A stretch of 64,000 bases of DNA from an uncultured Dehalococcoidia bacterium (GCA_958295525.1 OY282355.1:655504-719503); one strand, 5' to 3'; positions 5,766-63,623 are shown, counted from the first letter of the stretch. The notes: generated by a model not told the origin, from the letters alone. A program made the numbers and translations.

Positions 5766-6622
5766 CAGGAATCGCCCCCTGCTTCGGCTATCAACGGCAT
5801 CTTGACGAACGGGGATTCCAACACTTTCTGAGCATCGATCGCACGGTCGGCGTGCTTCGATCCAAGCGGTTCGCATCCTAACCTTTCGAGGCGATTATTC
5901 AATGATTCAAACCACCTATAATCCGTGTATTCGCCATCGGCTTTGTCCGCTTCGTTTAGGACATGTATCAGAACAGGCAGATACAGCCCGTTCATTAGGT
6001 ACTGACCTTGTGGCGTATTGTTCGCTTGGTCCCGCGCCGTGGCGAAGCGAGTGGAGTCAGCAGAAGACAAGCAGATTTTTATGCGGTTTCCGCCGAGGTT
6101 GCATTCCCATCGTCCGTTTTGGGAGCCGCTGGGTTCTGTCGCAAATATCGTCCCGATAGGAGATTCATCAGCTGCGTCTATCCAGCATCCTTTTGGCTTG
6201 TCCTCGGCAAGCACGACCCCTGGGGCAAGATCGAAAGCAAGCCCTGTGAAGTCCGAATGCCATCCTTGCGCGACAAAGCCGTACTGGAGTTCGACGCACA
6301 CGAGAAACGGCGAACACTCGATGAGGCCTGACAGTTCGCCTCTGAACGAGCGATTGATGAGGGGAGCGGCGGAGCGGAACTCTTGGCGAAAGTGCGTCTT
6401 AGGCGACTTGACCAGCAAGACGTACTGCGCTGCGCCATCCTGCACTAGCCGAAGGAGGTCAGGGTCGCTTAGGGAGAATTCCGCGGTGATGTCCGCGCCA
6501 ATGCTCCCTGGCGCGAGCTTGCGCGCTATGTCGACTTCGAACTCCGCGTTGGGGTAGTCGTCGCCGTACTCCCGAGGGCGCAGCACAGGGTGCGGCCAAC
6601 CCTTGCCTGGGTCAATTCGCAT
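5765..6622 (-). CDS. Unassigned 285-aa protein, third gene of the dcm-vsr operon
   Basis: MRIDPGKGWPHPVLRPREYGDDYPNAEFEV. Overlaps the GHKL gene end by 11 nt. GC visibly lower than flanks. No nuclease motif recognised by eye. Confidence 0.6.
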   Translation of the reverse strand: MRIDPGKGWPHPVLRPREYGDDYPNAEFEVDIARKLAPGSIGADITAEFSLSDPDLLRLVQDGAAQYVLLVKSPKTHFRQEFRSAAPLINRSFRGELSGLIECSPFLVCVELQYGFVAQGWHSDFTGLAFDLAPGVVLAEDKPKGCWIDAADESPIGTIFATEPSGSQNGRWECNLGGNRIKICLSSADSTRFATARDQANNTPQGQYLMNGLYLPVLIHVLNEADKADGEYTDYRWFESLNNRLERLGCEPLGSKHADRAIDAQKVLESPFVKMPLIAEAGGDS

Positions 6623-8603
6623 TTGTCACCACCTCTACCGCGGCAACGCGAAGCGCACGGTCGTGGATCGGGTTATCAGCGATGATCTCCAAGGACGGAG
6701 TGCGCTTGCCTGCGGTTAAAGCGATTTCCGCAAGCGTACTGCCGTCGGCAGCGCGAACGCCTTCCAAGGGATTCGTGTTCGAATCCCCCGCCTCTTCCAA
6801 TTCAATGCGGGCAGTTCCCGTGCGATGAGCCTTGAAACTGAGTCGGTAGCGGTTGGGTGCCCCAGGGACTGGGAGAACGCGGACAGCGGAAATAGGGAGC
6901 AGTTTCCTGACTGCGCCGCCGGACTGTCCGCCCGCCCCTCCTTCTCGTTCGCCGTCTCCGGACCCACCGGTTCCGCCGTCGCCGCCGTTGGCGCCTCCTA
7001 CGTCCTCGCCACTGCCGCCGACATCGCCGCCGTTGGCGTCTCCTGCGCCCCCGCCACTGCCACCGACATCGCCGCCGTAGCCTTCCGCGTCGTCTTCCTC
7101 GTCCCGAGGCAACGGAGGCGCCACCCGACGGATGGGCTTGAGTTTCACGGTTATTCTGTCCCCGAATCCGCGCTCTTTCGTTCCTTCGCTGCCGTCATTC
7201 GCCGCGTCATCGAACGGTTCGTCGGGGTACAGGTCAGGCAGGTATGCGGCGAGTTCGGAAAGCGCCGTCGTCTGTCCGGTCTCCCGCGGCCCTGCTTGCT
7301 TGCGGATTTCGTCGCGTATCCATTTCGTTATGCGCGCCAACGCGCGACGCCCTCTTTCGCGTTCATCTTCAGGCAGGTGGTCAGGTTCGAATTTATCGTG
7401 CCGGGGATTCTCCATCCGCCGCAGCAATTCGTTCCCTTGCGTATCCTCAAACACGCACATCGCCGCAAAGCCCTGGTGCAGAGGGAACCGCATTAGGTTG
7501 GGCTGTTGGTCGGTCACTAACATTCCTGTACGGCGAACGAGCGCAACCCTGCTAGGCAGCCCTTCTCCGACACGAATGAACAAATTGCAATGTCCAAGTT
7601 CGTGATCCTGTTTCTCTATGGCATCGATGCTCCCGTCGGCCAATTCCCAATACGCCTTAGCGCGCTTGAGCGCGGTGCCGTCTTCCTCATCTTCAACGGA
7701 GGCATTATCCTGGAGTGATTCAAACCATCTGTGAAGCGTGCCGCTTTCGATCTCTATATCAGACAGGTTCTCTGCATTAGAGTCAGGCTCGACCATAACT
7801 TTCAGGTTACCTTTGTCTATGGCGTAGAAGTAGTTTTCAATGACACTGGACGCGATGCGGTTCCTCCAGTTGCGCTCTTCGCTAAACCCTGCCACGAGCA
7901 AAACGGTGCCATGCACGCGGTTCCCATCTATGTCCTGCAGGCGAAACGATCTAGGGATTGAATCCGTCAACGCTTCACAGGCTTCTGTTATCCCGTAGAA
8001 TCCTGTGCCTTGCGTCCGGTTGGCTGCGTCGCCATGCGACATAAGCACGGCCTTGCCCTGGAATTTCTCGACTTCCCGCTGATTCTGGTCGTGATAGCAC
8101 GTCCAGTAGAACACCGTGCGGAGGGCCGAAACAGCGAAAGGCGCGTATTTGCCAATTCCAAAAGACCCGCCTGCGCCTGCGCCTTCTTTCTGGCTCAGCC
8201 CTTGCATTTTGACAAGCGCGTGCCAATTCTTCTCAGGCAGGCCGATAGTGTTGCGATCGGACACCTGCAAGCAAGGGATTTCCTTGCGGCCAAGGATGTC
8301 TTTGGCTTTTGCCAACGCTAGGCTTGCTCCGGTGTCTTGCTGCTCGTTCGCCACCAGGATTGACGCGACGACCTCACGCTGCAACTCTCCCGCGCCTATC
8401 TCATCGGGATTCACCGCAATGAGTTCGAACACGACCTCAACGGGGGAAGCCTCCGACTTTCTCGCGTCGAGCGAATTCTGAATTGTTTCGCGGGCAAGGC
8501 TAGACAGGGGCGCGCCAGTGAAAGTGGCGATTCCCGGGTCGTTCCAGCCGTCTTCCTTCCCGCCGTTGGTAGGGGGGAAGCTCCAACCCACTTCAGGCGC
8601 CAT
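6612..8603 (-). CDS. GHKL (Bergerat-fold, MORC/MutL-like) ATPase, 663 aa
   Basis: Start set at ATG 8603 (MAPEVGW), overlapping the dcm stop (TAATG). Motifs: N-box 'LARETIQNSLDA', 'QVSDRNTIGL', Gly-rich lid 'GGSFGIGKYA'. Followed by a long helical middle, a Gly/Asp-rich linker and a ~100-aa C-terminal domain. Confidence 0.7.
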   Translation of the reverse strand: MAPEVGWSFPPTNGGKEDGWNDPGIATFTGAPLSSLARETIQNSLDARKSEASPVEVVFELIAVNPDEIGAGELQREVVASILVANEQQDTGASLALAKAKDILGRKEIPCLQVSDRNTIGLPEKNWHALVKMQGLSQKEGAGAGGSFGIGKYAPFAVSALRTVFYWTCYHDQNQREVEKFQGKAVLMSHGDAANRTQGTGFYGITEACEALTDSIPRSFRLQDIDGNRVHGTVLLVAGFSEERNWRNRIASSVIENYFYAIDKGNLKVMVEPDSNAENLSDIEIESGTLHRWFESLQDNASVEDEEDGTALKRAKAYWELADGSIDAIEKQDHELGHCNLFIRVGEGLPSRVALVRRTGMLVTDQQPNLMRFPLHQGFAAMCVFEDTQGNELLRRMENPRHDKFEPDHLPEDERERGRRALARITKWIRDEIRKQAGPRETGQTTALSELAAYLPDLYPDEPFDDAANDGSEGTKERGFGDRITVKLKPIRRVAPPLPRDEEDDAEGYGGDVGGSGGGAGDANGGDVGGSGEDVGGANGGDGGTGGSGDGEREGGAGGQSGGAVRKLLPISAVRVLPVPGAPNRYRLSFKAHRTGTARIELEEAGDSNTNPLEGVRAADGSTLAEIALTAGKRTPSLEIIADNPIHDRALRVAAVEVVTNAN

Positions 8604-9628
8604 TAGACCGCCTCCGTCAGAATTCGAGCGCAGGCCGATCCTACCAGAGCGGTTAGGTGAACGCAAGCCGCGTTCCCCACGAGCCTGTACCGTTCGGTTT
8701 CAGGCATATCGTCAGGGAACAGCGGTTCGCAGGTCTTGAACCCTTGCAGGCCGGCCACCTCGTCAACGCTCATCTTGCGAATGCCCCAGTCGTCGCGCAC
8801 GAAAGGAACGTTGTGCCCGCCTATTCCCATATTGGCGGTCAAGGTCGGACAGAGCCCTTGCTTCTTCTCCCGCACATACGACCGTCGCAACTGGTAGACA
8901 TTCTCCGGAGACTCTCCTTCCTCCATCTCCCGACTGATCATTTTGTAGTAGCGGTTCTCCTCGGGGAGGTACGCCTCTTCAGGAGCGCGACGCTCGCGGT
9001 CGATGAACGCGCTGAGCGGACGGGGTTTGCTCTCGGGGCATCGCTCAACGGTGGAAGGGGAGAAGGGGTTGCAAGAGAAATGCGCTTTCGACGCGGCCAC
9101 CATAAACAAGCGCTCGCGGTCTTGCGGCAACTCGGTGTAGTCCTTGACGTTCGCCACCAAGCAGGCGCTGTCCCTGAACCAGTACCCCGCCCGCCTCAGT
9201 GCGCGCTGGACCTCGTCGAACCACTCCCCCCCCTCTCCGTAAAGGAGGTGGGGCACGTTCTCTAGTATGAGGAGACGGGGGCGTTCGGAAGGCTCCATCT
9301 CTCCCAAGATTCGGGGAATCTCGAAGAACAACGCCCCGCGCGGGTCGTTGAACCCTGCGCGGACGCCGGCTTGGGAGAAACTCTGGCAAGGAAAGCCGCC
9401 TGCCAGCACGTCCACCCCGGCCAACCGACCTTCCGCCGCCACCAACTCGCAGACATCTTTCTCTATGAACCGCACGTCAGGGAAGCGGTGGCGGAACGCG
9501 GCGGCGGCGTATTCATCGTTGTCGCTCGCCCAGCGGATTGCAAAGCCCGCTCGCTGAAGGCCGGAGGCGAGACCTCCCATGCCGCTAAACAGGCATCCTG
9601 CGGTCAGTTGACGTTCGTCCGCGCTCAT
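8603..9628 (-). CDS. dcm: DNA (cytosine-5)-methyltransferase
   Basis: Start set at ATG 9628 (MSADERQLTAGCLFSGMGG). Motif I 'FSGMGG', IV 'GFPCQSFS', VI 'LILENV', X 'GNAACV'. The upstream in-frame extension to 9742 is Arg-rich and unlikely to be coding. Confidence 0.9.
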   Translation of the reverse strand: MSADERQLTAGCLFSGMGGLASGLQRAGFAIRWASDNDEYAAAAFRHRFPDVRFIEKDVCELVAAEGRLAGVDVLAGGFPCQSFSQAGVRAGFNDPRGALFFEIPRILGEMEPSERPRLLILENVPHLLYGEGGEWFDEVQRALRRAGYWFRDSACLVANVKDYTELPQDRERLFMVAASKAHFSCNPFSPSTVERCPESKPRPLSAFIDRERRAPEEAYLPEENRYYKMISREMEEGESPENVYQLRRSYVREKKQGLCPTLTANMGIGGHNVPFVRDDWGIRKMSVDEVAGLQGFKTCEPLFPDDMPETERYRLVGNAACVHLTALVGSACARILTEAV

Positions 9629-19186: not shown

Positions 19187-19459
19187 TCAGCCCTGCGCGA
19201 GCAACGCCGCCGCCTTCTTTCGCGCCTCCGGATCCGCTTTGGAGTTGGCGATGATGGCGAGAGCGTCTTTGCCGCGTCCGTGCCTGATGATGATACTGCG
19301 TATGCCGCTCGCGCGGATTCTACAAGCCACCGGACTGTATCCTTCGGCGTCTCTGATTCGCTGAGGCAGCGCAGGGTCGTCTGCGTGCTCGTAGTACTTG
19401 ACGAAGCACGCCTTGCCGACCGAGTTGAGCGCTCGGATCAACTGCTGGTCGTTCATCAT
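19187..19459 (-). CDS. Hypothetical 90-aa protein
   Basis: Isolated minus-strand ORF between two plus-strand genes. Balanced composition; no family recognised. Confidence 0.4.
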   Translation of the reverse strand: MMNDQQLIRALNSVGKACFVKYYEHADDPALPQRIRDAEGYSPVACRIRASGIRSIIIRHGRGKDALAIIANSKADPEARKKAAALLAQG

Positions 19460-19505
19460 CGGCGCGTTCCCCTCCGCGCTTGGGCGCGGGCGCTATCCTA
19501 CGCCT

Positions 19506-19994
19506 ATGGCGACCTTCGACGCAAATCTCTACCGGCAGGCGTGGCGGAAGTTTCCGACAGGCGTGAGCATCGTGACGACGCGCTCGGCGGACGGCGGGCC
19601 GTACGCGACGACGGCGAACGCGCTGCTGTCGGCGGCGCTCGATCCGCCGTTGCTACTGCTGAGCGTGGGCACCGGCGGGCAGACCTGCGCGAATCTGGCG
19701 CGGGAAGGGCTGTTCGGCGTCAGTTTCCTGCCGGACGACCAGGCAGAGGTCGCGGACTTCTATGCGCGGGCGTCGGCGGAGGAGCGCGGGACGCTTCCGC
19801 CGTCGCATACGGCGCCGGCGAGCGGAGTGGCGTTGCTGGACGGCGCGCTGGCGGCGATGGCGTGCCGCATCGAGCAGCAGATGGAGGCGGGCGACCATAC
19901 GCTGTTCGTGGCGTCGGTGGAGCACGTGGAGGTTGGGGAGGGGAGCGCGCTGCTGTTCTACGACGGGCGCTACGGGAGCGCGCGTCAGAGTTGA
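19506..19994 (+). CDS. Flavin reductase (HpaC-like NAD(P)H:flavin oxidoreductase)
   Basis: Start at ATG 19506. 'FRKFPTGVSIVTT'-type motif ('WRKFPTGVSIVTTRS'), 'DHTLFVASVEHVEV'. Confidence 0.8.
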   Translation: MATFDANLYRQAWRKFPTGVSIVTTRSADGGPYATTANALLSAALDPPLLLLSVGTGGQTCANLAREGLFGVSFLPDDQAEVADFYARASAEERGTLPPSHTAPASGVALLDGALAAMACRIEQQMEAGDHTLFVASVEHVEVGEGSALLFYDGRYGSARQS

Positions 19995-20026
19995 CGCTTG
20001 GCCTGAAGCCGGACTAGACTTAGCTA
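19990..20026 (+). promoter_or_regulatory. Promoter and palindromic operator candidate of TA cassette 1 (the -10 and palindrome recur in cassettes 2-4)
   Basis: TTGACG (19990-19995), 18-nt spacer, TAGACT (20014-20019), immediately followed by the palindrome TTAGCTAA (20019-20026) and AAGGAG. TAGACT + TTAGCTAA recur at 20331-20343, 21045-21057 and 21409-21421. Confidence 0.45.
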
Positions 20027-20050
20027 AGGCTAAGGCAAGGAGCGCGCGCG

Positions 20051-20584
20051 ATGGTCCAGGTGAATATGCACGAGGCGAAGGCGCAACTCTCGCGGCTGGG
20101 GGAACTGGCCTGCAAAGGGGAGCGCGTAGTGATCGCCAAGAACGGGAAGCCGTACCTCGACTTGGTTCCGCACCAGGAGGAGAAGCGGGAGCCGCGCAAG
20201 CCGGGCGCGCTGAAGGGTCAGATCTGGATGGCGCCGGACTTCGATGAGACTCCTCAAGACGTCATAGACTTGTTCGAGAACAGCAGGCTCTGGCCGCGGC
20301 GGGCGAGTAGGGCGAACGCGGCGGATGGAGTAGACTTAGCTAAGGCTAGGGTAAGGAGCGTGCGCGATGGTGCAAGTGAATATGCACGAGGCGAAGGCGC
20401 AACTCTCGCGGCTAGGGGAACTGGCCTGCAAAGGGGAGCGCGTGGTGATCGCCAAGAACGGGAAGCCGTACCTCGACTTGGTTCCGCATCAGGAGGAGAA
20501 GCGGCGCGAGCCGCGCCAAATGGGCGGTTACGAAGGGCAGATCCGGATCGGCCCGGGCTTCGAGTGGTCAGACGAGGAGATTGA
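20051..20584 (+). CDS. Phd/YefM-like antitoxin, cassette 1 (toxin-less; ORF reads through the junction)
   Basis: The first ~80 aa are antitoxin-like (MVQVNMHEAKAQLSRLGELACKGERVVIAKNGKPYLDLVP...MAPDFDETPQDVIDLFENS). There is no in-frame stop, so the ORF runs out of frame through cassette 2 to 20584. Only about 15 nt of a vapC 3' end remain after it. Confidence 0.55.
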   Translation: MVQVNMHEAKAQLSRLGELACKGERVVIAKNGKPYLDLVPHQEEKREPRKPGALKGQIWMAPDFDETPQDVIDLFENSRLWPRRASRANAADGVDLAKARVRSVRDGASEYARGEGATLAARGTGLQRGARGDRQEREAVPRLGSASGGEAARAAPNGRLRRADPDRPGLRVVRRGD

Positions 20585-20630
20585 CGAGTTCCTGAACCTC
20601 GACGACCCGAACGACCCGCTGAAGTGGTAG
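20367..20630 (+). CDS. Phd/YefM-like antitoxin, cassette 2
   Basis: 87 aa. N-terminal 46 aa identical to cassettes 1 and 4; unique C-terminus 'GQIRIGPGFEWSDEEIDEFLNLDDPNDPLKW'. Confidence 0.8.
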   Translation: MVQVNMHEAKAQLSRLGELACKGERVVIAKNGKPYLDLVPHQEEKRREPRQMGGYEGQIRIGPGFEWSDEEIDEFLNLDDPNDPLKW

Positions 20631-20640
20631 GCGGCGCCTA

Positions 20641-21024
20641 ATGCGGCTGTTGCTTGACTCGCATACGCTCCTTTGGAGCCTGGGCGATGTGCCTCGCCTG
20701 GGCGAGGTTGCGCGAGAGGCTATCCGCAGCCCGGAGAACGAGGTGTTCGTGAGCGCGGTGAGCATGTGGGAACTGGGAGTGAAACGGCGGAAAGGGCAGT
20801 TGGACGCGCCGGACGACCTCGTCTCCATCGTGGAGCAGCGCGGGTTCACTCCGCTCCCGCTGTCGCTCTTTCATGCGGAGCAGGCCACGAACTTGCCGAT
20901 GCATCACCGCGACCCGTTCGACCGGATGCTCGTGGCGCAGGCGCAGGCGGAGGGGCTGACCATCGTGACGACGGACGATGCACTGCGGCGTTACGGCGTG
21001 CGAACGATGGCGGCGGCCGAGTAG
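20641..21024 (+). CDS. vapC: PIN-domain toxin VapC, cassette 2
   Basis: 127 aa. 'LLLDSHTLLW', 'MWELGVK', 'HHRDPFDRMLVAQA', 'IVTTDDAL'. Confidence 0.85.
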   Translation: MRLLLDSHTLLWSLGDVPRLGEVAREAIRSPENEVFVSAVSMWELGVKRRKGQLDAPDDLVSIVEQRGFTPLPLSLFHAEQATNLPMHHRDPFDRMLVAQAQAEGLTIVTTDDALRRYGVRTMAAAE

Positions 21025-21082
21025 GGCGAGCGCGGCGGCTAGAGTAGACTTAGCTAAGGCTAGGCGAAAAGGAGCATGCGCG

Positions 21083-21388
21083 ATGGTGCAAGTGAATATG
21101 CACGACGCGAAGGCGCAACTCTCGCGGCTGGGGGAACTGGCCTGCAAAGGAGAGCGCGTCGTGATCGCCAAGAACGGGAAGCCATACCTCGACTTGGTTC
21201 CGCACCAGGAGGAGAAGCGGCGCGAGCCGCGCAAGATCGGCATCCTGAAGGAACAGGGCTGGCCCGAGCCGGAGTACCAGAAGTTCACGGAGGACGAGTT
21301 GCGGGAGATGTTCGGCGAGGACATCATCGGGCCGCCCAGCCATGACGAGCGGCGTTACGGCGTTCGGACGATGGCGGCGGGCGAGTAG
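21083..21388 (+). CDS. Phd/YefM-like antitoxin, cassette 3, fused in frame to the last 12 codons of vapC
   Basis: Start at ATG 21083. The sequence follows cassette 4's antitoxin up to 'GEDIIGPP', then ends 'RRYGVRTMAAGE', which is the exact C-terminus of the VapC proteins. Confidence 0.75.
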   Translation: MVQVNMHDAKAQLSRLGELACKGERVVIAKNGKPYLDLVPHQEEKRREPRKIGILKEQGWPEPEYQKFTEDELREMFGEDIIGPPSHDERRYGVRTMAAGE

Positions 21389-21444
21389 GGCGAATGCGGC
21401 GAGTCGAGTAGACTTAGCTAAGGCTAGGGTAAGGAGCGTGCGCG

Positions 21445-21723
21445 ATGGTGCAAGTGAATATGCACGAGGCGAAGGCGCAACTCTCGCGGCTGGGGGAACT
21501 GGCCTGCAAAGGGGAGCGCGTGGTGATCGCCAAGAACGGGAAGCCGTATCTCGACTTGGTTCCGCATCAGGAGGAGAAGCGGCGCGAGCCGCGCAAGCCG
21601 GGCATCCTCAAGGAGCAGGGCTGGCCTGAGCCGGAGTACCGGAAGTTCACGGAGGACGAGTTGCGGGAGATGTTCGGCGAGGACATCATCGGGCCGCCCA
21701 ACGGGGACGAGCGGCGGTCGTGA
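21445..21723 (+). CDS. Phd/YefM-like antitoxin, cassette 4
   Basis: 92 aa. C-terminus 'GILKEQGWPEPEYRKFTEDELREMFGEDIIGPP'. Stop is 1 nt before the vapC ATG. Confidence 0.8.
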   Translation: MVQVNMHEAKAQLSRLGELACKGERVVIAKNGKPYLDLVPHQEEKRREPRKPGILKEQGWPEPEYRKFTEDELREMFGEDIIGPPNGDERRS

Positions 21724-21724
21724 G

Positions 21725-22108
21725 ATGAGATTGCTGCTCGACTCGCATACGCTCTTGTGGTGGTTTTGGCACAGCCCCCCGCTCGGAACGCTGGCGGATA
21801 ACGCCATCCGCAGCCCCGATAACGAGGTTCTCGTGAGCGCCGCGAGTATATGGGAACTTGCCATCAAGCAAGCCTCAGGCAAACTTGCGGCGCCGGAGAA
21901 CCTCATTGCCCTCTGTGAAAAGGAAGGCTTCCATCTGCTTCCCATACAGCCGTTTCATGCCGAACGCGCAGGCGGGTTGCCGCCTCACCATCGCGACCCA
22001 TTCGACCGGATGCTCGTGGCGCAGGCGCAGGCGGAGGGGCTGACCATCGTGACGGCGGACGCTGCGCTGCGGCGTTACGGCGTTCGGACGATGGCGGCGG
22101 GCGAGTAG
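21725..22108 (+). CDS. vapC: PIN-domain toxin VapC, cassette 4
   Basis: 127 aa. First 12 and last ~38 aa nearly identical to the cassette 2 VapC; the central part is diverged. Confidence 0.85.
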   Translation: MRLLLDSHTLLWWFWHSPPLGTLADNAIRSPDNEVLVSAASIWELAIKQASGKLAAPENLIALCEKEGFHLLPIQPFHAERAGGLPPHHRDPFDRMLVAQAQAEGLTIVTADAALRRYGVRTMAAGE

Positions 22109-22129
22109 TAGGGCGGACGCGGGGCCCTT

Positions 22130-23755
22130 TTACGAACTCGCGGGGGCGGAGGGCGGCGGCGGGTTGGGGCGGCGCGAAGCGCGGGAGCGCTTGCCGGCGC
22201 GGTTTGCGAAGTAGACGATCACGGCGACGACGATGATGACCGGGATGAAGACGCCAACCCAGATGAGGAGCGTGAGCGCGACGACGCCGATCGCGGAGAG
22301 CGCGCGCACCGCCGCCCTGAGCGTGTCCCCGGCGTCCCATCCGGCGATGAGGAAGCCTTCGGACTCGACGACGTAGACGTTGAAGGAGCCGGATGCGGAG
22401 ACGCGCCCCGCGTCGCTCGTCGCGCTCACGGTGAACTGGACGCGGTAGGCGTCGGGCCGATAGTCGGCGTAGGCGTGCTCAGTCTCGACGCGGGTCGCGC
22501 CGTCCGCGATCTGACCGCTGACGGTGGGCGAGCCGTCGCCGAAATTCCACTGATATTCGTAGTCCGCGAGTTCCGCAGGCGAGGTGAACGATGCGGCGTA
22601 ACGGACGCTTTCGCCCTCCTCGACGGTGCGGCTGTCGCCCGCGAACACCTCGATGGACGGAACTTCCTTGACGTCGGCTATGAGCGTGTCCTCGCCGACT
22701 GCGACGCCGCTCTCGCCTGTTCCGGTGAGCGTGATGGAGACGATGTAGGGGGAGTCCTTGTCGTCGGCGTAGACGTGATTGACGGTGGCGGTTACGCGGC
22801 GGCCTCCCTGAAGAGGAGCGCTGCCGGAGCCGTCGGTTTGCGAGCCGTCGCCGAAGTCCCATACGAAGGTGTAGTCATCGATGCCGTCAGGCGGCGCGAA
22901 GGTGGCGCGGAAGCGGGCGGTTTCGCCGACGCGGAAGGCGGCGTCGGGGCCCGCGTCCACGCTCAGGGCGAGCGGCGCGAGCGTGAGGCGCGCCTCGATG
23001 AGCGAGAAGGCGGAGACCTGCTCGTAATAGTTGATGCGGCCTTGCATCTCCTCGATTTGGAGTTGCACGGCGGTAAGTTGCTCTTGCACGAGAAGCGCTT
23101 CCTCGACGTCGGCGGCGAGGTCGAGGAACTCGCGGAGGCGGGTTTCGGTGGCGCGGAGGCCGGAGAGCCGTGACTGCGCGTCCACGTAGCGGTCGGTCAC
23201 GTCCTCGCTGCTCACGTCGCGCTCGACGACGTCCTGCGCGGCGGTCTCGATCATCTCGAGGGCGGCGTCGAGCGATTGGGCGGGAACGCGCACGGCGATG
23301 GACGCGGCATGGCGCGACTCGCGGTCGGAACTAACGAGCCATCCGCCGAGCCCGAGCGCGACGTCGCGGATGCGGTCCACTCCCTGCGCGACGTCGGCGA
23401 CGATGAGGTTGAGTTTGGCCGTGTGGACGATGACGCGGTTCTGGGGGAGGGGGGAGAGGCGAGGTCCGCCGCCGCTGTTGGCGTCCGCCGCGCCGTCGCC
23501 TGATTCGTCTTGCGCGAACGCGGCCATTGCAGTTGGGGTAGGGAAAGCGGAGACGGCGTCCGCCGCGCTTCCCTCGGTGCCTGCGGGGCCTCGCGCCCCG
23601 GCTGCCCCGGAGCCTGAGAAGACGTCTGCGGCGCTTCCTCGTGAGGAGTCCGGCGCTAGAGTCGGGTCTCCTCCGGCGCAGGCGCCCGCGAGCAGCAGCG
23701 CTGCGGGAAGCAGCGCTGCGACGGCGGCGCGGAGGATCTTGGCGGGTGCGTTCAT
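22130..23755 (-). CDS. DUF4349-like lipoprotein with two inserted PKD domains and a C-terminal TM anchor
   Basis: 541 aa. Lipobox 'LLAGAC'; coiled-coil region 'RYVDAQSRLSGLRATETRLREFL'; PKD signatures 'WDFGDGS' and 'WNFGDGS'; C-terminal TM 'VVALTLLIWVGVFIPVIIVVAVIVYF'. Confidence 0.65.
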   Translation of the reverse strand: MNAPAKILRAAVAALLPAALLLAGACAGGDPTLAPDSSRGSAADVFSGSGAAGARGPAGTEGSAADAVSAFPTPTAMAAFAQDESGDGAADANSGGGPRLSPLPQNRVIVHTAKLNLIVADVAQGVDRIRDVALGLGGWLVSSDRESRHAASIAVRVPAQSLDAALEMIETAAQDVVERDVSSEDVTDRYVDAQSRLSGLRATETRLREFLDLAADVEEALLVQEQLTAVQLQIEEMQGRINYYEQVSAFSLIEARLTLAPLALSVDAGPDAAFRVGETARFRATFAPPDGIDDYTFVWDFGDGSQTDGSGSAPLQGGRRVTATVNHVYADDKDSPYIVSITLTGTGESGVAVGEDTLIADVKEVPSIEVFAGDSRTVEEGESVRYAASFTSPAELADYEYQWNFGDGSPTVSGQIADGATRVETEHAYADYRPDAYRVQFTVSATSDAGRVSASGSFNVYVVESEGFLIAGWDAGDTLRAAVRALSAIGVVALTLLIWVGVFIPVIIVVAVIVYFANRAGKRSRASRRPNPPPPSAPASS

Positions 23756-50985: not shown

Positions 50986-51012
50986 ATGGGAACGACGGAG
51001 ATTCGAGGAACG

Positions 51013-53472
51013 ATGCTGGACGCGGATACGAAACGGCGCATAGACAACGCCCGCGACATCCTGGTGGGGAAGGTTCCCGATCCGAAAAGCCAGGTGGAGC
51101 AGATCACCATCGCCCTGATCTATAAGTTCATGGACGATATGGACGCGGAGAATGAGGAGTGGGGCGGGGAGCGCGAGTTCTTCGCGGACGGGTTCGAGCA
51201 GCATCGCTGGGCGAATCTCGTCCGCTCAGGGCTCGGCGGGCACGAGATGCTGAACCGCTACGCCGACGCGCTGGCCAGAATGCCGCAGAATCCGGCCATT
51301 CCGCCCCTCTTCCGCAGCATCTTCAGCAACGCCTACCTTCCGTACCGCGACCCCGAAACGCTGCGCCTCTTCCTCAAGGAGATCGACGGCTTCCGCTACG
51401 AGCAGTCCGACGGCTTCGGCGACGCTTACGAATACCTGCTGCGCGTGCTCGGCGCGCAGGGCGACGCAGGCCAATTCCTCACGCCCCGCCACATCATCGA
51501 GTTCATCGTGCGCGCTGTCGTCCCCCGGAAGGACGAGCGCGTCCTCGACCCCGCCTGCGGCACCGCAGGCTTCCTCATCGCCGCCTACAAGCACATCCTC
51601 GCCGCCAACGCCGGCGGCGACGGCCAGAGTTCCCTTACGCCGGACGAGAGCAAGCGGCTCGCCAACAACTTCACCGGCTACGACATCTCCCCCGATATGG
51701 CGCGCCTCTCCCGCGTCAATATGTATTTGCACGGCTTCGCCGCCCCCAACATTCAGGAGTACGACACGCTCACGAGCGAGGAGTTTTGGACGCAGTACGC
51801 CGACGTCATTCTCGCCAACCCGCCGTTTATGTCGCCCAAAGGCGGCATCCGGCCCCACGACCGCTTCGGCGTCCAGTCCAAGCGCAGCGAGGTGCTGTTC
51901 GTGGACTACATCGCCGAGCACTTAACGGCGTCCGGGCGCGCCGGCGTCATCGTGCCGGAAGGGATCATCTTTCAGGGCCAGACCGCCCATACGCAACTCC
52001 GCAAAATGCTCGTCGAGAAGCGCCTCGCCGCCGTCGTCTCCCTTCCCGCGGGCGTCTTTCAGCCGTACTCCGGCGTCAAAACGTCCATCCTCATCCTCGA
52101 CAACGCCCTCGCCCGCCGAACCGACAGCATCGCCTTCTTCAAAGTCGAAAGCGACGGCTTCGACTTAGGCGCGCAACGCCGCCCCATCGAGCGGAACGAC
52201 CTCCCCGCCGTTCAGGCGGAACTCGCCGAATACCTGCGGCTGGCGCGGGCAGGGGAGCCGTTGGACGGCTTCGCCCCGGCGCGCGGCCTCATCGTCGAGA
52301 AGACGCGCATCGCCGCAGGCGGCGACTACAACCTCAGCATGGAGCGCTACCGGGAGGATAAGGCAAGCGGCACGGAATGGCCGATCACGCCATTAGGTGA
52401 ACTGGTTGAATTGGTGCGTGGAGTCACGTACACCAAGAATGATGAAGTGACTGAGAACGGACACTCAGTGCTGAGGGCTAACAACATAGATGCATACACA
52501 GGATCATTGGATTTATCTGACATTAAGCAGGTGTCCGCGACTTTGGAGTTTGAGGGATCGAAGAAACTTCGCGCTGACGACATATTCATTTGCTTGGCGA
52601 GCGGAAGCAAAACCCACATTGGTAAAGTCGCTTTCATTCAGGAGGGTACGAACTATTATTTCGGGGGGTTCATGGGAGCAGTCAGAGGCGACCAATCCAA
52701 ATGCAACCCGAAATACCTGTTCCAGATGCTGCGTGAATCGAGGTTCAACGACTTTCTGCGTAGGCAGATTATTGGCGCAAACATCAATAACTTGAGCGGC
52801 AAAATACTGTACAGATACGCGATTCCGTTGCCCTCGATGGAGACGCAAGCGGCGATTGTGGAGGAGATCGAGGGCTATCAGCGTGTGCTCGACGGGGCGC
52901 GGGCGGTGGTCGAGGGGTGGCGTCCGCGGATAGTGGTCGATCCGGAATGGCCTGTGGTTCGGGTAGACGAAGTGGCTGCAGTCCGAATGGGAGAAACCTT
53001 AATCAAAGGCGACATGACAGGGTTCGGCAAGCCGGTGTTCAGCGCGGATTCGTCGGATGAGCCGTGGGCATACACTGAGTCCACTCGGTTATCGTTCGGT
53101 AAGAACACAGTTGTCATTGGCGCAAGAGGGACAATCGGGTCAGTAAAACTCCCCAATATCGATGAGTTCACTTGCACTCAAACTACGATTGCGGCTACTG
53201 CGGATGCCGAAAAGATAAACCCTGCGTTTCTCTATCCGTTGCTTATGCAATTTGATTTCAAGACTATTACCGAAGGTGTCGGCATACCAATGATTACCGT
53301 GGCGAATGTCAATAAGATAAGCGTTCCGTTGCCGCCGATGGACGCGCAACGGGCGATCGTGAAAGAGTTGGAGGCGGAGCGTTCGTTGGTGGATGCGAAC
53401 CGCGAGTTGATGGAGCGCATGGCGTCGCGGATTGCGGGGGCGGTGGGGCGCGTGTGGGGCGGGGCGGGGTAG
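51013..53472 (+). CDS. hsdM-hsdS: Type I R-M methyltransferase fused to specificity subunit (HsdM-HsdS)
   Basis: Start at ATG 51013 (MLDADTKRRIDNARDIL). HsdM motifs 'LDPACGTAGFL' and 'ANPPF'. From about residue 455 there are two TRDs separated by the conserved helices 'METQAAIVEEIEGYQRVLDGARAVVEGW' and 'MDAQRAIVKELEAERSLVDANRELMERM'. No stop between the M and S parts. Confidence 0.8.
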   Translation: MLDADTKRRIDNARDILVGKVPDPKSQVEQITIALIYKFMDDMDAENEEWGGEREFFADGFEQHRWANLVRSGLGGHEMLNRYADALARMPQNPAIPPLFRSIFSNAYLPYRDPETLRLFLKEIDGFRYEQSDGFGDAYEYLLRVLGAQGDAGQFLTPRHIIEFIVRAVVPRKDERVLDPACGTAGFLIAAYKHILAANAGGDGQSSLTPDESKRLANNFTGYDISPDMARLSRVNMYLHGFAAPNIQEYDTLTSEEFWTQYADVILANPPFMSPKGGIRPHDRFGVQSKRSEVLFVDYIAEHLTASGRAGVIVPEGIIFQGQTAHTQLRKMLVEKRLAAVVSLPAGVFQPYSGVKTSILILDNALARRTDSIAFFKVESDGFDLGAQRRPIERNDLPAVQAELAEYLRLARAGEPLDGFAPARGLIVEKTRIAAGGDYNLSMERYREDKASGTEWPITPLGELVELVRGVTYTKNDEVTENGHSVLRANNIDAYTGSLDLSDIKQVSATLEFEGSKKLRADDIFICLASGSKTHIGKVAFIQEGTNYYFGGFMGAVRGDQSKCNPKYLFQMLRESRFNDFLRRQIIGANINNLSGKILYRYAIPLPSMETQAAIVEEIEGYQRVLDGARAVVEGWRPRIVVDPEWPVVRVDEVAAVRMGETLIKGDMTGFGKPVFSADSSDEPWAYTESTRLSFGKNTVVIGARGTIGSVKLPNIDEFTCTQTTIAATADAEKINPAFLYPLLMQFDFKTITEGVGIPMITVANVNKISVPLPPMDAQRAIVKELEAERSLVDANRELMERMASRIAGAVGRVWGGAG

Positions 53473-53500: not shown

Positions 53501-54190
53501 TTAACGTGGGATCATTCTTGGCACTACTAATTTGCTCTTAGCGCGCACGATATTAGGCATATGGGACGAGCGATCTTCAAATAACGGGGCCAAAATATCA
53601 GCGATGCTGGTTTCGGCGTAATCTCTGTCTGATTTGACAACTGTAGTGTCGGAAACAGTTGCTTGGACGTCAGCCAACACTCCATTCCTTCCGTCATCGT
53701 CCGATATGAGGCAATCTATCGAGTCAAGGTCAAAACCACGCTCCGTCCACCAATACACTGATTCATTGAGGTTGAACTTGTCTATGTGCGCCAACGCCTC
53801 GAGGAAAGTGCGTGGCCGCATAATTCCGTTGGCGTCCTTTGATTGCGAAGATCCGCGTTGCCGCCAGTCGTTCTCCATGCGCTCTTGCGCTTCAGGAGAA
53901 AGCATTTGGTGAAGAGCGGCAAGAGTATGCACTTTGCGAAAGGCGAAGCCTTCCATCCCGATGAACGCTTTCAGCATCACTTCTGTGGAACGGGACATCA
54001 AGAATACTGCTATCGTCGTTAGCGTGCAGTCGGTATTCGACCCACGCTGCGGCGATTCGGCTGCCGCGCTGTTGATTCGTATCGCCATCCTCATCATATC
54101 GACGATGCCCGCCGCCAACATCGTGCATTGCCCTGCGATCGCCGCTGCTTGGGCTTGGGCGACAGTGACTTGCGCTTGCTTCTTCGCCAT
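53501..54190 (-). CDS. HEPN-like hypothetical protein (229 aa), low GC
   Basis: 'RSTEVMLKAFIGMEGFAFRKVHTLAALHQML' resembles the HEPN core helix pair (xELxLKAxL...HdLxxL). Convergent with hsdM-hsdS. Confidence 0.45.
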   Translation of the reverse strand: MAKKQAQVTVAQAQAAAIAGQCTMLAAGIVDMMRMAIRINSAAAESPQRGSNTDCTLTTIAVFLMSRSTEVMLKAFIGMEGFAFRKVHTLAALHQMLSPEAQERMENDWRQRGSSQSKDANGIMRPRTFLEALAHIDKFNLNESVYWWTERGFDLDSIDCLISDDDGRNGVLADVQATVSDTTVVKSDRDYAETSIADILAPLFEDRSSHMPNIVRAKSKLVVPRMIPR

Positions 54191-59968: not shown

Positions 59969-61726
59969 TCATCCGACGAAGAACCTGTTGCGGGCGATTT
60001 CCTCGGCGTAGGCGGCGTCTGCGTTCGCCTCCGCGTCAGGGGATGCGGGATTCCCGCCTTCGCGGGAATGACGATGCGCTGCGCGCTCCGTCACGGAGGC
60101 GAGATTCCCGCCTTCGCGGGAATGACGGGACACAGGGTCGCCGGGCGGGTCGTCGCCGTCATCGTTGTCGTCAGGGGCGGGGGGCGGCGGGAGGGGGACG
60201 CCGGCAGGGGCGCGAGCGCGCAGGAAGGGCTCGTAGCCCGTCCAAATCTGGAGGGACGGCGGGCGCATAAACGCAAGCGCCAAAGCGTCGGCGCGGTCAG
60301 GCGACGGCACGCCTTTCTTGCGCGTTTCACGCTTGCTCTCCAATTTCACCTGCCCGGAACTCGTCACGTCGTAGCGCAAGGACAGGAGTTGCGCGGCGAG
60401 GATTTCGTCTTGCGGCAGCGCGATGAGGTGGTCGTTCATCAGGCGGCGCAACTCCCAGAAGATTTCGGAGCGCAGGTTGGCGAATCTTGTCGGATGGGGC
60501 GCGCGGCGTCCGAATTGCACGCCGTAGACGGGCGCGCCGACCTCCTTGAGGCGGTCGCACACGCCTCCGCCGACGCCGTTCTCGTCAACGAACACCGCCT
60601 CGGCGCCCAGTTCGTTGGCCATCAGCGCCGCCTCGCCCGCGACGCGCATCGTGTCCATCTCGCGGTCGAGCGATTTCGTGGCGATGACGCGCTGGCCGCG
60701 CCTTGCGATCAGCACGGACTTGTCGGCTCCGAACCGGGCGACGTCCACGCCGATATACACGGGCTCGCGCTCGTCCTCTTCTTCTGTGGGGGCGCCCGCG
60801 CCGGACGGAGCAGACTCCGCCATCGCCGTCTCGACGGCCTTGCGTCCGACGAGCGAGTTGTCCTCCGCGTCCGGGAATTCGGCGTAGACGGACGAGCGGA
60901 ACAAGGGATGATCCTCGCCCCAGATGAGCGCTTTGTCGGCGATGTCTTCCGGCGTGATGAGGCCGGGGACGGGCTCGGCGCCGTCTATGAGATTCGGCGT
61001 GTCGAGGGCGGAGATGCGGAGGCGGGCGTAGGCCACTTGCTTCGCGTGGTGCGAATCGTAGAACTCGCCAGGGCGGGAGAGGGCGTTGCCGATCATTAGG
61101 AATTTCGTCGGGTTGAGGCGGATGGCCGCGTCAATGTAGGGTTGCTCGACGCCGTGCGCCTCGTCTACGATGACGAGCAACTGCGGCGAATGGAACCCCT
61201 GCACGCGGTCGGGCTTGTTCGTGGAGAACGCCACGCCGAATCTGTCGGGGGAGATGGTGTAGCGGCTTTTGGTGAGTTTGCCGGAGAGTTGGATGTCGGC
61301 GTTTGCGACGGCGGTGGCGATTTCGGGCCAGAGGATGTACTCGATTTGGCGTTGGGTTGGCGCGAGGACGACGACTTTGGCTGCGGGTCGGGTCTCCAGC
61401 CACCAGAGGATGATGCGGGCGGCGGCCCAGTCTTTGCCTGAGCCGTTGCAGCCGACGATGGAGACGCGGCGGTGGTTGGCGACGAGGTCGAGCATTTCGA
61501 TCTGCTTGGGGTAGGGTTGGCCGGCGTTGGGGAGGACGTGTTGGATGAATCCGGCGGGGTCGTCGCGGAACTGGGCGAGAGCGGGTGCGGCGTCTTTCCC
61601 GCGTTCGCGGGCAGGGCGCGGCGGCTGGGCGCCGCAGGAGGCGCAGCGCGTGGCGGCGCGGCCTCTGCGAGGCTTGGGGGAAGCGTCGCGCTGGTGGCGG
61701 TTGAAGAGTTTGGCGATGAGACTCAT
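59969..61726 (-). CDS. Phage terminase large subunit-like protein (orphan), C-terminus encoded by REP elements
   Basis: 585 aa. Walker A-like 'VGCNGSGKDW', Walker B 'LLVIVDEAHG', RNase-H-like nuclease 'YIGVDVARFGADKS', 'SPDRADALALAF'. The last ~60 aa include 'SRHSREGGNLAS...RHSREGGNPAS'. Confidence 0.75.
   Translation of the reverse strand: MSLIAKLFNRHQRDASPKPRRGRAATRCASCGAQPPRPARERGKDAAPALAQFRDDPAGFIQHVLPNAGQPYPKQIEMLDLVANHRRVSIVGCNGSGKDWAAARIILWWLETRPAAKVVVLAPTQRQIEYILWPEIATAVANADIQLSGKLTKSRYTISPDRFGVAFSTNKPDRVQGFHSPQLLVIVDEAHGVEQPYIDAAIRLNPTKFLMIGNALSRPGEFYDSHHAKQVAYARLRISALDTPNLIDGAEPVPGLITPEDIADKALIWGEDHPLFRSSVYAEFPDAEDNSLVGRKAVETAMAESAPSGAGAPTEEEDEREPVYIGVDVARFGADKSVLIARRGQRVIATKSLDREMDTMRVAGEAALMANELGAEAVFVDENGVGGGVCDRLKEVGAPVYGVQFGRRAPHPTRFANLRSEIFWELRRLMNDHLIALPQDEILAAQLLSLRYDVTSSGQVKLESKRETRKKGVPSPDRADALALAFMRPPSLQIWTGYEPFLRARAPAGVPLPPPPAPDDNDDGDDPPGDPVSRHSREGGNLASVTERAAHRHSREGGNPASPDAEANADAAYAEEIARNRFFVG
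60041..60130. repeat. Two REP-like hairpins inside the terminase reading frame
   Basis: gatgcgggattcccgccttcgcgggaatgacg ... ggcgagattcccgccttcgcgggaatgacggg. Confidence 0.85.
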
Positions 61727-61796
61727 AGTTGACAGTATCGCAACTAATGGCGGAACGCAATAGGGGCAAGTGTCGCATTGTGGGATGGGGGGACAG

Positions 61797-62095
61797 AGGG
61801 GCGAGATTCCCGCCTACGCGGGAATGACGGGGCACCCAGTAGGTTCCCGCTTTCGCGGGAATGACGAGCACAGGGGGCTGCTCCCGCATGCGCGTGGGGA
61901 CGCACCCAGTAGGTTCCCGCGTAGGCGGGAATGACGAATGGATGGCGGGGATGGCGGGGCACAGGGGGCGAGATTCCCGCCTACGCGGGAATGACGGAGG
62001 AGGGGGGAGGGGCGATGCGCTGCGCGGGGAGGGCGGGGCATGGGGGCGAGATTCCCGCCTACGCGGGAATGACGGGGCAAGGGGGCGCTTACGCG
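61797..62095. repeat. REP-like cluster (at least five hairpins)
   Basis: ggggcgagattcccgcctacgcgggaatgacgggg (three times), ccagtaggttcccgctttcgcgggaatgacg, ccagtaggttcccgcgtaggcgggaatgacg. Confidence 0.9.
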
Positions 62096-62110
62096 GGGAG
62101 GGGGAGGCGG

Positions 62111-62239
62111 ATGGCTATACTGCTCATCGGCGGAGTCAAAGCCGACGGGGACAGGTTTTACGAGAGGCGCGTTCCCGTGGCCGACCGGCTCTACGACGAG
62201 CATCTCGAGGAACTCCGAAAGGAAGGGTTGATCTCATGA
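62111..62239 (+). pseudogene. C-terminal half of a RelE/ParE-superfamily toxin (5' half replaced by REPs)
   Basis: 'MAILLIGGVKADGDRFYERRVPVADRLYDEHLEELRKEG' resembles the C-terminal '...ILLVAGDKSG...FY...IP.AD..Y..HL' segment of a RelE-like toxin family. Everything upstream in frame is REP translation ('GEIPAYAGMT'). Confidence 0.45.
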
Positions 62240-62421
62240 GCGGACACCACCCCTTTAGCGACCTCACCAAACGCTTCACGCCCGAGCAGTGGCGTTACAT
62301 CAAAGAGGGCGCCGCGAAGATGAATGCGGAGATCGAAGCCGCCAAGTCCGCCGCCGAGCAGCCGAAACCCAGCCGGGTCAAGCGTCAGCGGAAGGAGGCC
62401 GCGCAGTCGGGCGGAAGGTAG
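62236..62421 (+). CDS. Small antitoxin-like protein downstream of the toxin remnant
   Basis: ATGA overlap with the remnant's stop. 'MSGHHPFSDLTKRFTPEQWRYIKEGAAKMNAEIE', 61 aa. Assignment rests on context only. Confidence 0.4.
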   Translation: MSGHHPFSDLTKRFTPEQWRYIKEGAAKMNAEIEAAKSAAEQPKPSRVKRQRKEAAQSGGR

Positions 62422-62690
62422 GTTTCCGCTTCGCGGGCAGGGGGCGCTGCGCGCCGACTGGGTTCGCGGCTGCGCGGGAATGACGTGGCGTGTGGGGAAT
62501 TGGCGCTACGGGGGCGAGATTCCCGCCTACGCGGGAATGACGGAGGTGGGGGGCGAGGGGGGCGGAGAGGGCGGGGCGAGGGGGCGCTGCGCTACGCGCA
62601 TCGTCTGGCGCTTGCGCGCCGACTGGATTCCCGCCTGCGCGGGAATGACGGTAAGGGGGCGCTTGCGCGGGGAGGGCGGGGCGAGGCCCC
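62419..62690. repeat. REP-like cluster
   Basis: Several copies, including ggggcgagattcccgcctacgcgggaatgacgg and ctggattcccgcctgcgcgggaatgacgg. Confidence 0.85.
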
Positions 62691-62720
62691 GCCGGGGTGA
62701 TAAGGCGTGTTGCGGTCCCC

Positions 62721-63623
62721 CTACTCTGGCCACTCGCCGGAGTAGACCTCCACCGCGTCGCCCTCCATAAATACGGGGCCGCGGCCGGGCCAGGCGACCG
62801 TCAATTCCCCGCCGGGAACCTCCACGCGCACCTCGTCGCCCACGAGGCCGTGCAGGCGCGCCGCGACCACCATCGCGCTCGCGCCGGTGCCGCAGGCGAG
62901 CGTGAGGCCGGAGCCGCGCTCCCACGTGCGCGAGACGAGCCGGTCGCGCGCCGCGGCGTTGACCACGTGAAAGTTGACGCGGCGCGGAAACGCGGGGTGG
63001 CGCTCCACGAGCGGGCCAAGCCGGTCGAGCGGAACGTCCGCGACGGGCTCGCCAACGAACGCCGTGACGTGAGGATTGCCCATCGAGACCGCCGTAAGCG
63101 CGAACGCGGCGCCGTCAATGGCGAGCGGCGCGTCGAACGCGATCTCGCCGGGGCGGACGCCGAGCGTCGAGGCGAGGCCGGCGTCGAGCGCGGCGTAGTC
63201 GCTGGGGCCGAGCGCTGCGGCGTCGACGGGCACGTCGGCGGCGCGGAGAACGGGCTCGCCCATATTCACGCGCGCGCCGGTTACGCGGACGTCTTCCCAG
63301 CGCGGCTCGACGACGAGAACGCCGGCGTTCGTCTCGACGCGGAGCGCGGCGGGGTCGGCCTCGACCAGCCCGCGCTCCAAGACGAACTTGGCGAAGCAGC
63401 GGATGCCGTTGCCGCACATCTCGCCCTCCGAGCCGTCGGCGTTGAACATTCGCATACGGACGTCGGCGGCGGCGGACGGCGCGACGACGATGAGGCCGTC
63501 CGCGCCCGCGCCGAAATGCCGGTCGGACATCCGGCGGGCGAGTTCGGGCCAGTCGCGCCCCTCGCGCAGCCCGTCGACGTAGAGGTAATCGTTGCCCGCG
63601 CCCTGAAGTTTCGTGAACTGCAT
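62721..63623 (-). CDS. dapF: Diaminopimelate epimerase
   Basis: 300 aa. 'LQGAGNDYLYVD', 'MFNADGSEGEMCGNGIRCFAKF', 'TLACGTGASA' (both catalytic Cys contexts). Confidence 0.9.
   Translation of the reverse strand: MQFTKLQGAGNDYLYVDGLREGRDWPELARRMSDRHFGAGADGLIVVAPSAAADVRMRMFNADGSEGEMCGNGIRCFAKFVLERGLVEADPAALRVETNAGVLVVEPRWEDVRVTGARVNMGEPVLRAADVPVDAAALGPSDYAALDAGLASTLGVRPGEIAFDAPLAIDGAAFALTAVSMGNPHVTAFVGEPVADVPLDRLGPLVERHPAFPRRVNFHVVNAAARDRLVSRTWERGSGLTLACGTGASAMVVAARLHGLVGDEVRVEVPGGELTVAWPGRGPVFMEGDAVEVYSGEWPE

Follow-up and report, generated by a model that had tools for sequence, protein, structure and literature searches.

How do tandem copies of a toxin-antitoxin (TA) gene pair keep one half of their sequence uniform whilst the other half diverges? 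The question is raised by a tandem array at 20012-22125 of a 64,000-nucleotide stretch (the window) from the chromosome of an uncultured, soil-type Dehalococcoidia bacterium (Chloroflexota). The array consists of four head-to-tail cassettes, built from a VapB antitoxin with a probable Phd/YefM head and a VapC toxin of the PIN family. We consider it, with a probability of roughly 80%, to be a chromosomal, copy-number-variable, concertedly evolving tandem array of paralogous type II TA (Phd-VapC) cassettes. The ancestral cassette would have paired a translationally coupled VapC PIN-domain endoribonuclease with a VapB-like antitoxin whose short N-terminal head, of the Phd/YefM type, serves DNA binding and dimerisation and whose C-terminal tail is disordered and binds VapC.

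A repeat search and a cassette alignment bore out the preliminary description of four cassettes sharing a junction, a ribosome-binding site and the antitoxin 5' end. Direct repeats (D1) start at 20037, 20353, 21069 and 21431, with spacings of 316, 716 and 362 nt, and a 21-nt junction repeat (D4) occurs four times. The junction and an AAGGAG ribosome-binding site are common to all cassettes, as is a stretch of ~150 nt at the 5' end of the antitoxin gene. There are indeed four repeats, but they comprise two complete modules and two toxin-less remnants. Relatives, given L numbers here, came from a scan of Dehalococcoidia metagenome-assembled genome chromosomes and from contigs reached through protein look-ups. 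By type, the order in the window is alpha (toxin deleted), beta (A2 and T2), gamma (toxin deleted, A3 fusion) and gamma (A4 and T4):

20051-20584, plus strand: A1, alpha-type antitoxin, toxin deleted, 177 aa (open reading frame (ORF) and comparison with L035 and L036)
20367-20630, plus strand: A2, beta-type antitoxin, 87 aa (ORF, domain search, orthologues)
20641-21024, plus strand: T2, VapC/PIN toxin, beta type, 127 aa (Pfam PIN, E=1e-14)
21083-21388, plus strand: A3, gamma-type antitoxin fused to the end of vapC, 101 aa (cassette alignment)
21445-21723, plus strand: A4, gamma-type antitoxin, 92 aa (ORF, domain search, AlphaFold2 (AF2) model)
21725-22108, plus strand: T4, VapC/PIN toxin, gamma type, 127 aa (Pfam PIN, E=1e-17; AF2 model)

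The antitoxin lies directly upstream of a toxin on the same strand, the gene order of VapBC modules, in cassettes 2 and 4 only. The gap from antitoxin stop to toxin ATG is 10 nt for A2/T2 and 1 nt for A4/T4. Minus-strand ORFs at 20638-21327 and 21424-21945 were put down to high GC, as shadows of the plus-strand genes, which have family support.

The two toxins, T2 and T4, are 68% identical. Their first 12 residues are identical, but the last 40 match at 37 of 40 positions, so the earlier claim of identity at both ends holds fully for the N-terminus alone. Synonymous and nonsynonymous differences (pS and pN) were counted per segment by the Nei-Gojobori method (NG86), between T2 and T4 and between A2 and A4:

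Toxin codons 1-12, T2 vs T4: pS 0.71, pN 0.04
Toxin codons 13-87, T2 vs T4: pS 0.65, pN 0.34
Toxin codons 88-127, T2 vs T4: pS 0.19, pN 0.03
Antitoxin head codons 1-50, A2 vs A4: pS 0.06, pN 0

The synonymous difference relative to the toxin core gave Fisher p=4e-5 for the toxin 3' end and 1e-8 for the head. Judged by these counts, vapC codons 88-127, the junction and antitoxin codons 1-50 are one recently homogenised block. One example, recognised from pS and from clustering by species group, is:

20902-21232, plus strand: T2 codons 88-127, junction and A3 codons 1-50

The first 12 toxin codons are saturated at synonymous sites, so the identical N-terminus points to purifying selection on the catalytic motif. 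The preliminary description had cast both conserved toxin ends as recombination handles. That idea fits the 3' third, which is homogenised together with the junction and head, but not the saturated 5' end.

Distances were compared among 18 complete cassettes from five species groups. Heads differed by 0.03-0.04 within a group, whatever the cassette type, and by 0.09-0.10 between groups; toxin 3' ends differed by 0.07-0.09 and 0.14, respectively. Toxin cores differed by 0.05-0.22 within a type and by 0.37-0.38 between types, whatever the group. By these distances, heads and toxin 3' ends follow the species group and toxin cores follow the cassette type. Likewise, the toxins end in MAAGE in the window's species, in MPADE in three other groups and in MAADE in the fifth, in every cassette type. 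Between orthologous toxins of the window and L036, the 3' block (pS 0.20-0.24) is more diverged than the core (0.02-0.09), which indicates that conversion continued after the strains split. As read from the substitution patterns, this homogenisation is of the kind left by gene conversion or unequal crossing-over, that is, concerted evolution.

The rest of the cassette tells of older history. On the alignments, the antitoxin tail and toxin residues 13-87 are an old, co-inherited specificity unit under purifying selection across species. Tail type and toxin-core type agree in 20 of 20 complete cassettes; the two are inherited together, contradicting the earlier proposal that the tail/toxin-core interface is shuffled. 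Orthologues of A2, 92-97% identical and each paired with a beta-type toxin, were found in L003, L004, L031, L035 and L036. Cassette types are common to several species, and the types therefore predate the species splits. Between orthologous toxins, the ratio of nonsynonymous to synonymous substitution rates (dN/dS) of the core was 0.05-0.38 in 13 of 14 pairs and never above 1; the remaining pair, the near-identical gamma toxins of the window and L036, gave a core dN/dS of 0.61. The low ratios among orthologues indicate that the toxins are maintained by purifying selection. Toxin variability lies mostly at residues 13-30 and 51-68, and residues 69-87 show a different pattern of relatedness.

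The specificity unit comes in at least five types, which are themselves mosaics. The three antitoxin tails in the window had been described as unrelated-looking. The sequences then quoted are correct, but the tails are not unrelated. All three can be aligned and share the motif R-x-x-G-x-x-[KE]-[GE]-Q-x-x-x-x-P-x-[FY], with an acidic helix after it that ends in F, and hence are homologous. The A1 tail matches DUF2281 and NCBIfam VapB models. In a 35-member alignment, the alpha tail (…G.LKGQIW.APDFDETP.EVI..FE) is the canonical form, widespread in Proteobacteria, and the beta and gamma tails align with it as derivatives. The three tails are, on this alignment, diverged and mosaic versions of one VapC-binding motif. 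Their first halves are GALKGQIWMAPDF (alpha), GGYEGQIRIGPGF (beta), GILKEQGWPEPEY (gamma) and GVWKGRIRIG.DF (epsilon), and their second halves TPQDVIDLFENSRLWP (alpha), SDEEIDEFLNLDDPNDPLKW (beta) and TEDELREMFGEDIIGPP… (gamma). These half-modules occur in the combinations alpha-alpha, beta-beta, gamma-gamma, alpha-gamma, epsilon-gamma, gamma-beta (P0022) and beta-gamma (P0015). The modularity first proposed for the tails is thus real, as mosaics of half-modules.

Does the array itself change? The contig of L036 (2.53 Mb) is ~96% identical to the window, collinear over the whole array and identical in its four-cassette architecture. That of L035 (2.52 Mb, from a sample shared with L036) carries delta, alpha, beta, gamma (toxin deleted) and gamma cassettes, with the alpha toxin T1 intact. 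All of these arrays follow the same upstream marker:

19398-19994, plus strand: flavin reductase gene, upstream flank and insertion-site marker (Pfam Flavin_Reduct, E=8e-36)

This gene precedes the TA locus in L001, L004 and L032-L040, and L001, L004 and L032 also show synteny across the upstream flank (FKBP, hydrolase, flavin reductase). As anticipated from the window, related genomes have different cassette numbers, and both number and order vary at this one site, from one to five cassettes: one in L037-L039, one plus an extra antitoxin in L040, two in L004 (beta-gamma) and three in L001 (delta-gamma-beta, beta toxin deleted). Other loci hold gamma-beta (L003), alpha-gamma (L041), a single epsilon cassette (L002) or at least four cassettes (L031, …-epsilon-gamma-beta). 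Comparison of these loci indicates that genomes come to differ in the number and order of their cassettes through recombination in the conserved block. In Actinomycetota and metagenomes, the distant relatives are single cassettes; the metagenome scan found only such distant (~50% identical) single-cassette relatives. The viral contig scan found no relatives, and there is accordingly no sign of phage origin.

Several of the related loci have further features of their own. In L002 (OZ251500.1, 6730-8284) a CRISPR array follows immediately downstream of the single epsilon-type cassette, with the repeat GTTGCGGTTGTCCCCCGATCTCCCATCGGTTACACT present at least 23 times. In L041 (6001-12252) a 617-aa gene with HNH and RuvC (Cas9-like) domains comes after the alpha-gamma pair of cassettes; FitA-like/PIN and DUF433/DUF5615 pairs lie nearby, and the neighbourhood resembles a defence/TA island. 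The TA locus of L003 is flanked by pairs of tandem direct repeats, each ~90 nt long and 92-94% identical (OZ251500.1, 3608-3797 and 8833-9012).

Cassettes 1 and 3 are, by comparison with these relatives, toxin-deleted derivatives; only 2 and 4 keep a toxin. A3 is fused in frame to the last ~12 vapC codons (...DERR followed by YGVRTMAAGE). The fusion point is a GCGGCG microhomology at 21349-21354, and the identical 101-aa fusion is also present in L035 and L036. For A1, the deletion junction (20296/20297) was located against L035, which keeps the 126-aa alpha-type toxin T1 with its GTG start overlapping the A1 stop, and against L036, which has another end point. The window equals L035 minus exactly the stretch from the A1 TGA to the last 14 nt of T1. 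What is left of T1 is:

20297-20310, plus strand: 3' remnant of the deleted vapC T1, CGGCGGGCGAGTAG (alignment with L035 cassette 1)

Because the deletion took the TGA, the A1 stop was lost. The native 82 codons end at 20296 with no in-frame stop, and the ORF continues, out of frame, across the junction and A2 head until it is 177 aa long. In L036 the A1 stop is kept, and the differing end points indicate that T1 was deleted independently in two strains. The alpha toxin has thus been lost twice within one species, catching toxin loss in the act.

The third (beta) cassette of L001 has its vapC reduced to ATGCGGTTG (L001 7688-7710 vs window 22106-22135), joined to sequence that in the window is found 3' of the T4 stop (AGGGCGG.ACGC…TACGAACTCGCG). 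On this alignment, a whole toxin has again been cleanly deleted. The count of visible deletion events thus comes to at least four: the window alpha, the L036 alpha, the shared gamma-3 fusion and the L001 beta. Frameshifted toxins in L032 were left out of this count because they may reflect indel errors in that assembly. From these comparisons, toxins are repeatedly lost by clean deletions that leave orphan antitoxins behind. That antitoxins outlast the deleted toxins is direct evidence that TA modules decay in the expected order.

The genes themselves are unexceptional. T2 and T4 match Pfam PIN above threshold, and residues D6, E44, D94 and D112 are invariant in the toxin family (24- and 40-sequence alignments). 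With these catalytic residues intact, both are presumed to be active RNases. The AF2 model of T4 (predicted local distance difference test score, pLDDT, 96) matched Shigella VapC (3TND/5ED0) in Foldseek with template modelling (TM) scores of 0.69-0.72, and also VapC15 and VapC11 of Mycobacterium tuberculosis and FitB. The toxin family profile matches the tRNA(fMet) endonuclease VapC 3TND (E=0.004). Exact-protein look-ups of T2 and T4 returned no record.

On the antitoxin side, the 46-aa head is identical in A1, A2 and A4 and differs in A3 by E8D only, in agreement with the single substitution first reported. Across phyla, the protein sequence of the head is highly conserved. The antitoxins match PhdYeFM (PF02604) over their N-terminal half only (model positions 1-45 of 74). 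This model is matched at E<0.01 by 31 of 35 antitoxin family members; precomputed PF02604 matches are recorded for many homologues, and NCBI annotates homologues as Phd/YefM antitoxin and VapC toxin. In the AF2 model of A4, the head (residues 1-40, pLDDT 81-91) has an alpha-beta-beta fold with a helix at 6-21 and a beta hairpin at 26-38, and the tail is disordered except for a helix at 70-77. A profile search of PDB with the antitoxins gave a chance-level match only.

How are the cassettes controlled? We found one candidate promoter and four copies of a palindrome (searches with TAGACTTAGCTAAGGCTA; palindromes carry no strand):

19991-20020, plus strand: sigma-70-like promoter, TTGACG-18-TAGACT (promoter scan, one site found, 0.3 expected)
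20015-20032: palindrome copy 1, predicted operator, TAGACTTAGCTAAGGCTA
20331-20348: palindrome copy 2
21045-21062: palindrome copy 3
21409-21426: palindrome copy 4

The promoter is the single sigma-70-like site in 19300-22600. Its -35 overlaps the flavin reductase stop and its -10 is the left half of the first palindrome; L001 has a matching TTGACG...TAGACT arrangement. The imperfect palindrome is 18 nt long, is self-complementary at 16 of 18 positions and was expected 0.00 times from shuffles. It is exactly conserved as a single copy before the first cassette in L001, L002, L004, L032 and L041. Only in the window's species does it precede every cassette (four copies in the window, four in L036, five in L035); the internal junctions of the other species groups have a different sequence. 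No intrinsic terminator-like sites were found in 19300-22600.

VapBC modules are autoregulated through a palindromic operator at their own promoter, to which the antitoxin or the TA complex binds. These features are consistent with such control and with the whole array being one operon transcribed from the promoter at 19991-20020, with the palindrome as predicted operator for the shared head and the -10 lying inside it. Since all copies have one head and one palindrome, a single regulatory logic over all cassettes is plausible. The conversion tract would have carried the palindrome into each junction in the window's species. With identical heads, all antitoxins would repress the same operator or operators, possibly as mixed dimers. 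Cognate antitoxins of VapBC systems bind their growth-inhibiting toxins directly and so neutralise them; here, neutralisation would be largely confined to tail and toxin of matching type, with indirect support from the co-inheritance of the two types in 20 cassettes and from purifying selection on the toxin cores. A3 would then be an extra gamma-type antitoxin for T4, and A1 would be without a remaining cognate toxin in the genome.

Our reading of the locus as a concertedly evolving array has to be weighed against several points. Synonymous sites are few, at 32-54 per segment. The PF02604 scores of the antitoxins, 24.6-26.9 bits, fall below the gathering score of 29.8. The best Foldseek matches of the A4 head were VapB46-N (6JQY, the top match), a Nitrosomonas europaea Phd protein and P1 Phd-N, with target-normalised TM scores of 0.53-0.64 and E values of ~1 that are non-significant for a domain of only ~40 aa. 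The internal palindromes have no recognisable -35, and each could be an operator, a roadblock, a weak promoter or a hitch-hiker in a conversion tract. Gamma toxins vary down to 73% identity, against an almost invariant gamma tail, and tail/toxin specificity may be looser than assumed. Finally, concerted evolution may simply follow from tandem repetition, as a neutral by-product, without being selected.

The opposite of this last point would be that head and operator identity is itself selected. Conversion would keep one head and one operator, mixed dimers would integrate the states of several VapC toxins, orphans would act as buffers, and recombination of tail half-modules and toxin patches (13-30, 51-68) would make new specificities. 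We put this forward tentatively and think it rather unlikely; if true, it would make the locus a natural combinatorial TA-diversification locus.

The preliminary description went further and saw a dedicated diversification device, in which the conserved ends are selected handles for shuffling antitoxin tails against toxin cores under one autoregulatory circuit. It is true that homogenised flanks bracket a hypervariable interface block, that tails and toxin cores are mosaic and that cassette content differs between strains ~96% identical. However, tail and toxin types are never uncoupled in the 20 complete cassettes, the 5' handle of the toxin is saturated at synonymous sites and, with no dN/dS above 1 in the 14 pairs, the toxin cores are under purifying and not diversifying selection. 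A scan of the neighbouring genes showed no recombinase or other dedicated machinery nearby. Moreover, ordinary homologous recombination in any tandem paralogue cluster is expected to give this pattern (PMC2568036). Nothing shows the array to be more than the product of ordinary unequal crossing-over and gene conversion, and we regard such a device as unlikely.

Recent tandem duplication without gene conversion, in which the conserved parts are merely those under the strongest purifying selection, would account for the conservation of the head protein across phyla and for the invariant catalytic residues within toxin residues 88-112. It does not account for the nucleotide pattern. Between species, heads differ at 9-10% of nucleotides, with protein identity of 98-100% in four of the five species groups; synonymous sites are thus free to vary, yet paralogous heads within a genome are near-identical. 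The non-coding junction is homogenised too, the cassette types predate the species splits, and the species-specific toxin endings are common to all types. Plain duplication is thus a very improbable explanation.

Even less credible is a site-specific cassette array, integron-like or of another sort, recombining at the 18-bp junction palindrome. Integrons have an adjacent tyrosine-recombinase integrase and attC sites that bound unrelated, promoterless cassettes. The window's species does have an imperfect palindrome at every cassette boundary, but no integrase or recombinase gene lies in the neighbourhood and the cassettes, unlike those carried by integrons, are all of one gene family. In related genomes, whose arrays also vary in number and order, the palindrome is single-copy and sits at the promoter -10. 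An orphan array of a polymorphic toxin was likewise rejected as no large secreted toxin gene flanks the locus; contact-dependent inhibition (CDI) and Rhs systems have such a gene, with a replaceable C-terminal toxin (CT) domain, followed by orphan CT/immunity pairs.

An assembly collapse or expansion of a repeated module, named from the start as the finding that would undo the array, has next to no probability: repeats of 300-700 nt at 90-97% identity can mislead short-read assemblers, but the array lies on a 2.51-Mb contig in the window's own assembly and at the same site on the two megabase contigs of L035 and L036, from another sample and ~96% identical to the window, with orthologous cassette-by-cassette differences, and the cassettes are individually distinct in tails and deletions.

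We therefore return to concerted evolution of an otherwise familiar module. By their genes, the cassettes belong to the common PHD-PIN (VapBC) pairing and are in no way unusual among its members, of which 276-285 instances have been counted (Makarova et al. 2009, PMC2701414), and the locus shows no new kind of system. Like Phd/YefM-type VapB-VapC pairs such as M. tuberculosis VapBC46, they have a small, coupled antitoxin upstream of a ~127-aa PIN toxin with four acidic catalytic residues. As modelled, the antitoxins may also resemble VapBC46-type antitoxins in their Phd-like head and disordered tail with a short helix. They differ from single PHD-PIN modules in being reiterated as four cassettes with identical heads, two of them without a toxin. 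They have no close solved structure: single-sequence phmmer searches of PDB with T4 and A4 returned no match.

The closest parallel in mode of evolution is the lpl cluster of Staphylococcus aureus, in which a conserved stretch is the site of homologous recombination (Tsuru & Kobayashi 2008, PMC2568036). There, the variable unit straddles two genes, taking in the 3' portion of one ORF and the 5' portion of the ORF after it, and is passed on as a whole; strains differ by rearrangement and copy number (PMC2568036). The array shares with it a homogenised conserved segment, a co-inherited variable two-ORF unit and rearrangements between strains. In the array, unlike the lpl cluster, the variable unit is the protein-protein interface (tail and toxin core) of an addiction module, and the conserved unit carries the regulatory head, the predicted operator and the ribosome-binding site. 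Tandem TA duplications are also known, as in the COG2880-PIN clusters of Archaeoglobus fulgidus (Makarova et al. 2009, PMC2701414), which resemble the array in having adjacent, closely related antitoxin and PIN pairs from tandem duplication. For such duplicated pairs and TA islands, our literature searches turned up no account of a concertedly evolving DNA-binding half, of reiterated operators or of toxins repeatedly deleted within an array. In these searches we found no type II TA array that combines concerted head and operator evolution, diverged co-inherited interfaces and recurrent toxin deletions.

Orphan antitoxins are commonly read as degraded TA remnants or anti-addiction genes (PMC7354431). 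A1 and A3 likewise lack a partner toxin; unlike the usual orphans, their origin by clean toxin deletion is visible and they are still embedded among intact paralogues. The YefM-YoeB modules of S. aureus, also Phd/YefM-family paralogues in one genome, are reported to differ in DNA binding and recognition (PMC8717551), unlike the heads and palindromes of the array, which are kept identical. The locus thereby offers a natural experiment in which, after duplication, the interface stays divergent and co-inherited and the regulatory half is continually homogenised. Its relatives, with at least five related tail/toxin types and natural chimeras, form a panel for VapB-VapC specificity and cross-talk under identical heads.

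The neighbours of the array encode the flavin reductase, a DUF4349/PKD protein and a PMT_2 glycosyltransferase. An Rfam scan of the window at gathering threshold gave no match, a tRNA scan found none, and PADLOC has no model for the TA proteins of the array. Elsewhere in the window, a 684-aa ORF at 6612-8666 (minus strand) has no Pfam match but strongly matches PDC-M33A, a candidate defence protein of PADLOC (E=3e-107). GC is lower in the surrounding 5-9 kb (0.575-0.61 vs ~0.67), and the ORF may therefore be an acquired defence gene. An 828-aa fusion of a type I N6-adenine methyltransferase with two specificity (Methylase_S) domains at 50986-53472 (plus strand) adjoins the lowest-GC stretch of the window (52-54 kb, GC 0.53-0.58), and next to it is a 229-aa ORF without a family match (53501-54190, minus strand). 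A sharp GC-skew spike lies at 61000-63000, with values of 0.285 at 61-62 kb and 0.149 at 62-63 kb.

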